The position numbers and the translations under genes were made by a program. 64,000 bases of DNA from a virus: positions 1 through 64,000 of IMG/VR virus record IMGVR_UViG_3300045973_000445; one strand, 5' to 3'. Position 1 is the first letter of the stretch; each line of letters begins with the position of its first letter. Positions 38,020 through 40,045 of this stretch are shown here, in pieces. The notes below the pieces were generated by a model. That model saw only the letters and a list, made by a program, of their open reading frames with translations. It ran no database searches and was not told the DNA's origin.

Positions 38020-38864
38020 CAATCTAGAAAAGACTCCGTGCTTTTGATATCCGTGTAGCTCCCCAAAGCCTTTCCGATTATAGCCGTTTTCAGGGCAAGC
38101 TGAAGGGCACTGGGCGCACCAGCTCCTGGTTCGGGTATAGCTGTCTCATTAAGGATAGTTACCAAAGCCTGAAGCAAGTCGTTTGTCTTATTGAGCTGTG
38201 TTTGCAGTTCATCCCCTTTAACCATCGCCTCTGATCCAGTATTGATCTTAAATGTATCTTCTACCTCCAGAGTAGCTGTTTTGGATTTCAAAGCCAGTGC
38301 TTCCTTAGCCTCTATGCTGACATCTTTACTAGATACAATCTTAAGGGTGTCATCCAGTTCTATATTGATGTTTCCATTACAGCGAAGATTAACAACAGCT
38401 GTCCTGTCTTTATTGGCTACTGATATATTAAGCTGGCTCAGTGATCCTCCGTTTACTGTTAAGTTTAACACCCCTGTCTTGGCATCTCCAGATACTGTAA
38501 CAGAACCATCTCCTAGGATTTCGGTGATCTTAAAAAATCCTTCCCGTAGCAACTGGGACTCATCCTCCTTTGAAAGCACCCCGATTACCATCGGAAGTCC
38601 ATTGTTTGGATCCATCAGGAACATCACACAGCTACCCAGCTTTTTATAATCTGCTGGGAACTCAATATCTCGAATAGCTGACTTTGTTATATAGCACTCA
38701 TGGCTTACTCCTCCTCCTTTTTCAATCAAGATCGATACCCTTTCCCAGCGATAGCACTGTTCTATAAAAGTAGCCCGATCTACATCTGATGGGAGTATGA
38801 TATAACCATACTGTAGTCCTCCATAGTACTGAGATGATTTTATGGGATGTGGTCTATTGTTCAT
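38019..38864 (-). CDS. baseplate central spike (gpV/gp138-like)
   Basis: OB-like N-terminus (PMVIGVL), beta-helix-like C-terminal half, EAMVKGD; downstream of the hub. Confidence 0.7.
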   Translation of the reverse strand: MNNRPHPIKSSQYYGGLQYGYIILPSDVDRATFIEQCYRWERVSILIEKGGGVSHECYITKSAIRDIEFPADYKKLGSCVMFLMDPNNGLPMVIGVLSKEDESQLLREGFFKITEILGDGSVTVSGDAKTGVLNLTVNGGSLSQLNISVANKDRTAVVNLRCNGNINIELDDTLKIVSSKDVSIEAKEALALKSKTATLEVEDTFKINTGSEAMVKGDELQTQLNKTNDLLQALVTILNETAIPEPGAGAPSALQLALKTAIIGKALGSYTDIKSTESFLD

Positions 38865-40028
38865 GGGATTACGCTAAATGTCAAATATTTGATGTATATT
38901 TGTGTATGAAATTGACATTGAAAATAAAACTTTTGCCCACTCCAGAGCAATTTATTTTTCTTAAAGATACATTGATAGAAGCTAATAATGCTTGTAATGC
39001 TATTTCTGAAATTTCTTTTAATGAAAAACAATACAATCAATATAAACTGCATCATAGAACATACTATGATATAAAACGAGAATTTAATCTTTCTGCTCAA
39101 GTAGTAGCTCGTTGCATTAGTAAAGTAGCTAATGCTTATAAATTGAATAAAACTATTAAAAGTGAATTTAACCCACTTGGTGGTATTACATATGATGCTC
39201 GAATTCTTTCGTATGTTAAAAAAGGTATTTCTTTGTGGTCTGTTGGGGGTAGAATTAAAGTTCCCTTTATTTGCCATAATCAAAACTATATCCCTTATAT
39301 AAAGGGAGAGGCTGATTTGGTATTTAAAAAGGATAAGTTTTATCTTTTTCAAACAGTAGATGTTCCCGAAGAGGGTATTAGAGATGTGGAAGAGTTTATT
39401 GGTGTTGATTTTGGACAAACTGACATAGCAGTATTGTCTGATGGGACTAGTTTTAATTCTGAACAACTTAAAAAAGTTCGTAAAAGATATTCTAAAGTAA
39501 GAACAAGTATTCAATCCAAAGGCACAAAAGGAAGTAAGAAACTTCTGAAACGGCTTAGTGGGAGGGAAACTCGTTTTGTTTCTATTAATAATCACACAAT
39601 AAGTAAACAAATAGTAGCAAAGGCCAAAATAGAAAACAAAGGAATTGCTATTGAGGATTTGACAGATATTCGCAAAACAGCAAAGCCAAAAAGTAAAGTA
39701 CAAAAGACAGAATTGAATCGTTGGAGTTTCTTTCAACTCCGCACTTTTCTGACCTATAAGGCATTGCTCAATGGAGTTAAATTGATTGTAGCTCCTCCCG
39801 CCTATACCTCTCAGACTTGTAATGTTTGTAATCATATTGGTATTAGAACTGGGAAATACTTTAGATGTAAAAATTGTGGTAATATAGCAGATGCAGATCA
39901 TAATGCTGCTCTGAATATAGCTACATGGGGGTGTTCTATAAATCACCCTGAAAAATCGACTATGTTTTGCTCTTTGCATTCATTGTTAGGTTTAAAACTT
40001 ATCTAATTCTAATTGATTGGTGTTTTAT
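38865..40028 (+). mobile_element. transposase-less IS200/IS605-like (IS1341-type) TnpB element, 1164 bp
   Basis: Opposite orientation to the operon; ATGGGAT at both borders (38863-38869, 40027-40033); removal restores an ATGA overlap between hub and spike genes. Confidence 0.8.
38906..40006 (+). CDS. tnpB: TnpB RNA-guided endonuclease
   Basis: MKLTLKIKL start, RuvC-I GVDFG, RuvC-II IEDL, TSQTCxxC/CxxC zinc finger, RuvC-III DADHNAALNI; TATATTTG box just upstream. Confidence 0.95.
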   Translation: MKLTLKIKLLPTPEQFIFLKDTLIEANNACNAISEISFNEKQYNQYKLHHRTYYDIKREFNLSAQVVARCISKVANAYKLNKTIKSEFNPLGGITYDARILSYVKKGISLWSVGGRIKVPFICHNQNYIPYIKGEADLVFKKDKFYLFQTVDVPEEGIRDVEEFIGVDFGQTDIAVLSDGTSFNSEQLKKVRKRYSKVRTSIQSKGTKGSKKLLKRLSGRETRFVSINNHTISKQIVAKAKIENKGIAIEDLTDIRKTAKPKSKVQKTELNRWSFFQLRTFLTYKALLNGVKLIVAPPAYTSQTCNVCNHIGIRTGKYFRCKNCGNIADADHNAALNIATWGCSINHPEKSTMFCSLHSLLGLKLI

Positions 40029-40045
40029 GGGATAAATTTTCGATG
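39929..40045 (+). ncRNA. putative omega/reRNA 3' scaffold and guide of TnpB
   Basis: Hairpin gggtg/caccc 39929-39948 whose loop ATAAA can pair with TTTAT 40024-40028; guide would begin at 40029; 5' boundary uncertain. Confidence 0.5.

Follow-up and report, generated by a model that had tools for sequence, protein, structure and literature searches.

We found that a tnpB-only transposable element sits backwards in a tail operon of a virus represented by a 64,000-nucleotide stretch of DNA (IMG/VR record IMGVR_UViG_3300045973_000445, positions 1 to 64,000; hereafter the window), and that the strand opposite to its tnpB gene is open all the way to the start codon of the next phage gene. The element (38865..40028, plus strand, 1164 bp) is of the IS200/IS605 type, is non-autonomous, belongs to a clade that occurs mainly in Bacteroidota and their phages, and lies immediately 3' of the pentamer TTCAT, its transposon-associated motif (TAM). 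Taken together with this anatomy, the open reverse strand suggests a ribosome bridge over the insert, and we give this composite reading a probability of about 0.6. Considered by itself, the proposal that the phage tolerates the insert because ribosomes can cross it on the open reverse strand, so that the downstream genes are spared polarity, is based on comparison of sequences, and we rate it as slightly better than an even chance.

The element lies between two minus-strand genes, a 747-aa tail protein (40025..42268) and a 281-aa conserved tail-module protein (38019..38864, starting ATGAAC), which are called hub and spike below; these are labels only, since PHROG and PDB profile searches gave neither name support. 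Deleting 1164 bp in silico was possible in eight registers (first deleted base 38863-38870), all of which gave one identical product, in which the hub still has 747 aa, ends in FLHRKFIP, and has a TGA that overlaps the spike ATG as ATGA. With the element present, the hub stop is a TAA at 40025-27, inside the element. The insertion has split the ATGA overlap of the two genes and left both proteins unchanged, TAA replacing TGA in the same position. The original prediction, which was made from the sequence of the window alone, had already stated that excision restores the ATGA stop/start and that the element supplies a substitute TAA with which the hub still ends in KFIP, and both statements were confirmed. 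An empty site was found in two related phages (L015/L016, which are on one contig, and L017), whose hub and spike proteins are 66-67% and 52-59% identical to those of the window. Their junction has the predicted form: ..RKFLP* runs over MNF.. through CCATGAA, with an uninterrupted ATGA overlap, and both keep TTCAT when read on the element strand. The relatives with the empty allele that the prediction called for thus exist, at only 66-67% hub identity.

The borders of the element are flanked by a 7-bp direct repeat, ATGGGAT (38863..38869 and 40027..40033), from which the original prediction concluded that the exact junction is ambiguous. This is correct for the window taken alone, as the eight registers with one product demonstrate, but the right end of the family fixes the register. 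In the 29 loci whose right end lies inside the contig, conservation stops at ..GGTAGTTTA[C/T] or a one-base variant of it, and the flank beyond is unrelated. The right end of the window aligns as ..GGTGTTTTAT, with 40028 as its last base. Because the conservation of the relatives ends at 40028, the element is placed at 38865-40028, the TAM at 38860-64, and the guide from 40029 onward.

The antisense open frame comprises 372 codons on the minus strand (38861..39979) and is codon-aligned with tnpB (38906..40006, plus strand, 366 aa). It runs from an ATG at 39979 to a TGA at 38863-61, which lies inside the TAM and overlaps the spike ATG (38864-62). Furthermore, it shares the reading frame of the hub, and its ATG lies 45 nt past the hub's TAA. 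For the reverse strand to be open across tnpB, the gene must avoid the codons TTA, CTA, and TCA; none of the 52 Leu and Ser codons among tnpB codons 1-358 is one of these. In the 48 other genes of the window, these three codons made up 783 of 2552 Leu and Ser codons (30.7%; P about 5e-9 versus tnpB), and the longest run free of them in any other gene was 226 codons.

The same feature was investigated in the family, which was represented by 102 distinct loci, 99 of them with an intact tnpB. Duplicates (L005, L007, L011, L012, L014, and four metagenome loci that do not differ over their first 900 nt) and partial genes (L021, L035-L037, and L039-L041) were left out of the frame statistics. An antisense open run of at least 350 codons was present in 91 of the 99 intact genes, and the share of TTA, CTA, and TCA among Leu and Ser codons was 2.8% in family tnpB (156/5558) versus 32.1% in the flanks (1856/5781). 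Moreover, in 36 of the 87 loci that could be evaluated (45 with one-base variants), the frame crosses the left end, which is non-coding and contains the hairpin, and finishes on the TCA of TTCAT, versus 4.4% (710/16021) under the null for a frame ending in TTCAT (P 7e-26). When this state was placed on a FastTree tree of the 99 TnpB proteins, 32 changes were required, compared with a mean of 30.8 for shuffled labels; the trait is therefore scattered over the tree and does not reflect one clade counted many times. Of the 29 left ends that were located independently, 18 had a length of 2 mod 3, and the truncated left end of the window is still 2 mod 3 and contains no stop. As far as the sequences tell, the open-antisense trait is specific to this TnpB clade: two tnpB genes of unrelated families (L127 and L130, from the same metagenome-assembled genome (MAG) as the family member L018) have no long antisense frame, and one of them is 31% identical to the window TnpB while the other gave no BLAST match. 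The identity of the antisense peptides was 0.39, versus 0.62 for TnpB and 0.33 for a null in which synonymous codons were redrawn, and no Pfam match was obtained for the antisense products in four of four cases. Low antisense identity without a Pfam match fits selection for openness and not for a protein, and selection for an open frame would be the simplest account. In three human gut metagenome contigs (L091, L094, L096), the antisense frame is 645 codons long and extends about 690 nt past the TAM, where it may be fused in frame with a host-strand gene.

The family also has a consistent site habit. Among the 31 evaluable loci with a frame ending in TTCAT (six further loci run off their contigs), the ATG of the complementary ATGAA opens a host-strand open reading frame (ORF) of at least 60 codons in 19, versus 256 of 1067 (24%) for random ATGAA occurrences in the same flanks (P 1e-5). 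At the right end, the triplet at -3..-1 is TTA in 67 of 70 loci. Since ATGAA and [G/A]TAAA place TGA and TAA alike, an ATGA overlap can be split with neither protein changed. This TnpB family normally sits backwards on ATGAA starts and ATGA overlaps, in bacterial genomes too. The suggestion that the positioning is special to phage warfare was not upheld, the same niche being used in bacterial genomes. Homologues of hub or spike were not found at the other 100-odd family loci, and the element lies at this particular junction only in the window.

Considering that the reverse strand is open up to the spike ATG, ribosomes could cross the insert. In the proposed sequence of events, translation of the hub would end at the element-supplied TAA (40025-27), and the antisense ATG at 39979, 45 nt on, would start the 372-codon frame through the antisense of tnpB and the left end. 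This frame would end at the TGA in the TAM and overlap the spike ATG, by which coupling would be re-created, and ribosomes would traverse the 1.16-kb insert without polarity on the downstream tail and baseplate genes. Several results weigh against this proposal. The bridge is not universal: of the 29 independently located left ends, 4 have a frame that reaches the TAM and 4 a frame that overruns it, while in 7 the frame ends 6-30 nt before the TAM and in 14 at a greater distance before it. A broken bridge, defined as a frame ending at least 29 nt short of the TAM, was not associated with loss of the downstream gene, a host ORF of at least 60 codons being present in 7 of 12 such loci versus 19 of 31 with an intact bridge; the loci that stop short keep their downstream ORF, hence the exact stop/start overlap is not required for survival. 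Because hub ribosomes halt 45 nt before the antisense ATG, re-initiation or independent initiation must be assumed. Finally, the right-end TAA terminates a host-strand frame of 60 or more open codons, as it does the hub here, in 16 of 70 loci, a count that may not exceed chance.

The product of tnpB matched the Pfam family Cas12f1-like_TNB (6.3e-22, 77.9 bits; cut-off 26.3) and the PHROG transposase phrog_506 (1.9e-42), and scored 27.1 bits against OrfB_IS605, under the Pfam cut-off of 30.5. Twenty-one PDB sequences of the TnpB/Cas12f type matched it, with ISDra2 chains reaching only 33 bits by sequence. The residues D168 (39407-09), E250 (39653-55), and D331 (39896-98), as well as C305, C308, C321, and C324, do not vary in an alignment of 9 family sequences. 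We take the former to be the RuvC triad and the four cysteines (CxxC...CxxC) to be the zinc finger, on the basis of the motifs GxDxG, IxxEDL, and DxNAAxNI, the last two of which are spanned by the PDB alignments. The three acidic residues noted as intact in the original prediction are thus retained throughout the alignment. The 366 codons contain no stop and no frameshift, and all family-invariant residues are kept. A TldR-like dead repressor was rejected because the catalytic residues are intact. The start of the gene is at 38906, as judged from the N-terminus MKLTLKIK, which is kept in all relatives; an alternative start at ATG 38834 was rejected on account of this conserved N-terminus and of the upstream TAnnTTTG box, and should not be taken as the tnpB start in annotation.

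We found one tnpB in the whole 86.9-kb viral record (64% complete according to CheckV) and neither a Y1 transposase (PF01797) nor a resolvase. The absence of tnpA from the element therefore agrees with the prediction, and the search of that record for tnpA in trans was likewise empty. PF01797 was found in 0 of 10 ORFs upstream of relatives' tnpB, and the family elements are too short to hold tnpA; of 5 host MAGs of family members, 3 carry stand-alone Y1 genes. In GenBank, 324 phage records matched the TnpB, all with less than 60% identity. As tnpB is common in phage records, a phage-borne tnpB is not new in itself.

TTCAT (38860..38864, plus strand) is the reverse complement of the spike's ATGAA and holds the TGA that ends the antisense frame. 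It was found at the left end in 20 of 22 relatives with a motif legible by eye (the exceptions being GTCAT and TTCAC) and in 25 of another 29 loci, whose left ends had been placed by a sequence model (the exceptions being GTCAT twice, ATCAT, and CTCAT), in agreement with the predicted TAM of about TTCAT. In relatives, the 5' part of the left end consists of TTCAT, about 12 variable nt, an outer stem, GGAAACC, an inner hairpin, and GGGAGGAAT, and the 3' part consists of an A+T-rich spacer, a TTCnnATATnnGAA palindrome, a TAnnTTTG box, and the start codon. What is left in the window is a remnant of 41 nt (38865..38905, plus strand) with the palindrome TCAAATATTTGA (38881-92) and the TAnnTTTG box (38895-38902), from which the hairpin module of about 60 nt is absent. 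The box, presumably the -7 promoter box of Bacteroidota, stands 3 nt before the tnpB ATG (3-5 nt in relatives). At 41 nt, this left end is the shortest among the 37 loci whose frame ends in TTCAT (next 77 and 83 nt; usually 95-140 nt), and a model of the left-end hairpin, which was used for sequence only and without base pairs, found nothing over 36000-43000 (best 3.9 bits). The module was also undetected in 28 of 67 other loci, some of them cut by contig ends; left ends vary within the family. Relatives have subterminal hairpins at both ends, and the window copy differs from them at both, the left hairpin being absent and the right one weak. The original prediction had described the subterminal hairpin as degenerate. 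The right-end hairpin is indeed weak but present, and degeneration affects mainly the left end, where the hairpin module is wholly missing. With no TnpA and no left hairpin, the window copy should be immobile by the peel-and-paste route, judging from the biology of IS608 and ISDra2.

Some further features of the left ends were observed. The TTCnnATATnnGAA palindrome before the TAnnTTTG box is conserved in the window (38881-38902) and its relatives, and its arms change together; on sequence, palindrome and box look like an operator and promoter for a leaderless or nearly leaderless mRNA. The module in L020-L121 seems to consist of two nested stems, an outer one (GGCAA..TTGCC or GCTAC..GTAGC) around GGAAACC-hairpin-GGGAGGAA, and by eye both stems change in a compensatory way; RNAalifold gave no pairs on the left-end alignment, in which MAFFT had misaligned the hairpin. 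In two loci (L045 and L047), the left end is 371 nt long compared with the usual length of about 120 nt, which suggests an insertion; the antisense frame of L045 nevertheless stays open for 487 codons up to TTCAT.

The 3' part of the omega-RNA scaffold (right-end element RNA, reRNA) was assigned to 39898..40028 on the plus strand. The last 135 nt of the element have a conserved structure in 28 relatives, in which the 3' GTTTAC forms a helix with GTAAAC, a loop segment of a hairpin further upstream. This loop-to-3'-end helix is paired in 99.4% of cells across the 28 relatives, with compensatory changes at 3 of 6 pairs (G-C to A-U in four relatives ending in T, and A-U to C-G in two). Two further scaffold helices pair in about 90% of cells, and 0 of 500 shuffles reached the observed values. 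In the window, the pseudoknot is formed by ATAAAT (39938-43) with TTTTAT (40023-28) through 5 of 6 pairs, the outermost pair being A-U as in those four relatives, and the terminal hairpin (39997-40021) pairs 39997-40003 with 40015-21 through 6 of 7 pairs and is weak by eye. A covariance model built from the 28 relatives, with the window excluded, matched 39898-40028 at full length with 102.5 bits (E 3.6e-23), a score partly owed to coding conservation, and its next best match in the 64 kb had 12.5 bits. All 80 of 80 metagenome relatives scored between 44 and 131 bits, which puts the window in mid-range. An Rfam search of 38000-41000 with E up to 1 returned no family. Both the loop-to-3'-end pairing and the scaffold end near 40028 had been anticipated from the window alone, and they are supported by the covarying helix and by a window-free model that ends exactly at 40028. 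The conservation of the relatives and the end of this model also bear out the claim that the guide starts at 40029. The predicted guide is the right flank (40029..40045, plus strand), which is the complement of the last hub codons; its length is our assumption, taken from work on ISDra2. With up to 3 mismatches allowed, the window contains it a single time.

That the TnpB is active here, with an omega-RNA ending at 40028 and the predicted guide GGGATAAATTTTCG..., is a tentative proposal that we place below an even chance. By analogy with ISDra2 and ISGst, such a nuclease would cut TTCAT followed by GGGATAAATTTTCG.., that is, the element-free allele of a near-identical co-infecting phage, and would thereby help the element to be retained or copied ('non-restorative homing'). 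The left junction of the element matches the guide over 5 nt only, and its right junction is preceded by TTTAT, a single base off the TAM TTCAT; the element's own junctions would therefore be protected. Nevertheless, some features of the window copy argue against activity: its 3'-terminal decamer has 3 differences from the family's GGTAGTTTAC, the terminal hairpin has one mismatch and one G-T pair, and the right end TTTAT is itself one base off the TAM. As regards homing, a near-identical empty allele was not found among the reachable relatives. In searches of viral contigs for a closer empty allele, the spike protein gave none, the hub protein gave only L015, and spike alignment gave only L016 (on the same contig as L015) and L017; hub alignment against metagenome contigs gave 463 pattern hits and no relative. 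The contigs of one DNA sequencing run, probably the source of the record, contained no joint that skips the element, and only the source contig extended across it; contigs drop rare variants, so a minority empty allele would not show in them. Compared with the guide over 20 positions, the two empty relatives have 5 and 4 mismatches, of which 4 and 3 lie within the first 12, so cutting of them is improbable. P0002, which with 90% identity is the closest homologue of the spike and comes from a 3.8-kb contig in a different assembly, starts MSNRP where the window has MNNRP; as its start is then not ATGAA, the TAM TTCAT would be absent there.

Alternatively, the phage might keep a transposase-less TnpB as an RNA-guided homing endonuclease or as a weapon against element-free sister phages in mixed infections, which we consider unlikely, and we are equally doubtful of the specific form in which a cut at the tail-gene junction drives gene conversion of the element with its flanks or excludes a competitor. 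Intact nuclease residues, the family TAM at the site, an omega-RNA score of 102.5 bits within the family's 44-131, and a guide that is unique in the window all suit such a role, and with the left hairpin lost and no TnpA in the record only a TnpA-independent route remains. In addition, 'transposon non-restorative homing' into co-infecting phages and plasmids is in print, with plasmid data said to be TnpA-independent (PMC13565253). However, no target allele was found, the sole empty relatives mismatching the guide at 4-5 of 20 positions (3-4 within the first 12), and P0002, as the closest spike homologue, lacks ATGAA. The element occupies the hub/spike junction only here among 100-odd family loci, and bacterial chromosomes show the same site habit, so its position needs no phage-specific purpose. 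If the TnpB and its RNA were dead, the element could be an inert, immobilised relic that landed once, lost its left end, and is passively carried, with the open antisense frame inherited from a recent ancestor. The left end of 41 nt (the next being 77 and 83 nt among 37 loci), the weakened terminal hairpin, the 3 changes in the conserved 3' decamer, and the single copy in a record without a transposase are what would be expected of such a relic. We nonetheless find it rather improbable, since a 366-codon tnpB free of stops and frameshifts has kept its family-invariant residues, the omega-RNA scores mid-range for the family, and the antisense frame is intact too, even through a truncated left end that is 2 mod 3 and stop-free.

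The antisense frame could instead encode a functional protein, for example a regulator or partner of TnpB comparable to the 'TnpB_rev' of Anabaena and cyanophage A-1(L). For that tnpB, a 347-aa reverse-strand ORF, transcription of both strands, and matching peptides are reported in a preprint (bioRxiv 10.64898/2026.02.14.705889), and the frame is open in 91 of 99 relatives here. Given an antisense identity of 0.39, near the null of 0.33 and far from the 0.62 of TnpB, the lack of a Pfam family for 4 of 4 products, and a frame that runs on through the non-coding left end to the host start codon, which a protein function does not predict, we judge this explanation to have a low probability. The last rival takes the 7-bp repeat as a true target-site duplication made by another transposase or by an IS607-type serine recombinase, in which case the element would not be of the peel-and-paste kind. 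The direct repeat at the borders is real, and repeats of 7 bp occur in 3 of 58 family loci (the window, L114, and L025), where a right-side match of at least 5 nt is expected in about 0.06 of 58 (our own estimate, 4^-5 per locus); this is more than chance would give. But the border repeat is 0-3 bp long in 54 of the 58 loci and 4 bp in 1, the conservation of the relatives stops exactly at ..GTTTA[C/T], equivalent to 40028, the left and right hairpins of relatives have similar feet as in IS200/IS605 elements, and the record contains no resolvase, for which reason an IS607-type element was rejected. We regard a duplication as very improbable. In L114 (275-290 with 1563-1580) and L025 (207-225 with 1436-1455), both of which have full left ends, the right flank begins with the same 5-7 nt as the left end. 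In ATGGGAT, AT is due to the resemblance between the TAM TTCAT and the right end TTTAT, and GGGAT is common to the starts of the left-end remnant and the flank; a repair or copying event primed by microhomology may be the origin of the repeat.

A broader view, which we offer as speculation and consider improbable, is that the whole clade is a 'ribosome-traversable' transposon, and that the phage copy, having shed its left end with the binding site for TnpA, persists only because TnpB guides its copying into genomes free of it in co-infection, with the 7-bp repeat as the scar of a copying event primed by microhomology. In such a transposon, the TAM would complement the commonest gene start ATGAA, the right end would bring a ready-made TAA, and the reverse strand would serve as a relay ORF that passes ribosomes to the downstream gene. 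The element could then live in essential, translationally coupled operons, including the structural operons of phages.

The phage that carries the element is uncultured and its host group is probably Bacteroidota. The element is flanked by minus-strand tail and baseplate genes, and Pfam and PHROG searches identified the baseplate wedge phrog_6 and a tail-tube-initiator-like protein among its neighbours. The 747-aa hub matched phrog_1015, 'tail protein with lysin activity', weakly (6.8e-07), and its PDB profile search gave no match. For the 281-aa spike, 47 homologues were found besides the window's own protein, and no PHROG or PDB match was obtained (best PDB profile E 0.1). A scan of 37800-40400 for sigma-70 promoters and terminators gave counts within those of shuffles, Bacteroidota promoters lying outside the model of the scan. 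A 34-nt stretch just 3' of the spike gene (37986-38019) is repeated about 8.9 kb away, at about 46919-46952, and pieces resembling it were seen on other small contigs of the same sequencing run; it may be a promoter, a terminator, or another signal that recurs between genes.

TnpB elements, from which Cas12 descends, serve as compact genome editors, and their tolerance by hosts is less well understood than their cutting. If the ribosome bridge is true, it is a third way for a mobile element to spare its target gene, besides RNA splicing (introns, IStrons) and protein splicing (inteins), and it would explain how such elements sit inside essential coupled operons. The docking of TTCAT on ATGAA lets both TAM and guide be read from the sequence, and for RNA-guided 'non-restorative homing' between phages in co-infection this locus is a natural candidate. 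For annotation, a long ORF antisense to tnpB should not be called an ordinary gene. Start-codon docking and an element-spanning antisense frame are not described in the published full texts that were searched, apart from one reverse-strand tnpB ORF, and supplements may list the clade or its TAM.

The element is a further member of the known tnpB-only kind of IS200/IS605 elements. It has the same type of RuvC and zinc-finger nuclease as the TnpB of ISDra2 (Deinococcus radiodurans) and ISGst (Geobacillus), as these are described by Meers et al. (bioRxiv 10.1101/2023.03.14.532601). In both cases the RNA scaffold shares sequence with the 3' end of tnpB as well as with the right end of the element, the right flank provides the guide, and a 5-nt TAM lies 5' of the left end; a role in retention or homing is assumed to be shared. 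In the same preprint, TTCAT is the TAM of ISGst5 IscB, another IS200/IS605 effector, and TTTAT that of ISGst2 TnpB2. Unlike ISDra2 and ISGst, the copies examined have no tnpA, and the window copy has lost its left-end hairpin. The element-spanning antisense frame is a feature of the window family that the accessible descriptions of ISDra2 and ISGst do not contain.

Other systems share single traits with the element. IStrons, which are IS607- or IS200-type elements fused to group I introns, also bear TnpB and soften the damage of their own insertion to the host gene, according to a 2026 review (PMC13565253). They do so by splicing themselves out of the sense RNA, whereas the window element is antisense to its host genes and has no Rfam match, and the remedy proposed for it is translation across the insert; for these reasons an intron or IStron was rejected. 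The same review describes the free-standing homing endonucleases of T4-like phages (SegF and others; intronless homing and marker exclusion), in which a nuclease gene also lies between conserved phage genes. Each of these nucleases and the window TnpB could cut the allele that lacks it in a co-infecting relative. The window TnpB differs in that recognition is predicted to be by RNA guide and TAM and that the gene lies antisense inside a translationally coupled junction. For phages, 'non-restorative homing' between co-infecting genomes is treated as only a possibility in the part of that review to which we refer. The nearest parallel to the antisense frame is the tnpB of cyanophage A-1(L) and Anabaena PCC 7120, likewise a phage-borne solo tnpB, whose reverse-strand frame has 347 aa compared with 372 here. 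Its authors propose a novel protein, 'TnpB_rev', and the accessible portion of their preprint (bioRxiv 10.64898/2026.02.14.705889) mentions neither an end at a host start codon nor a bridging role.

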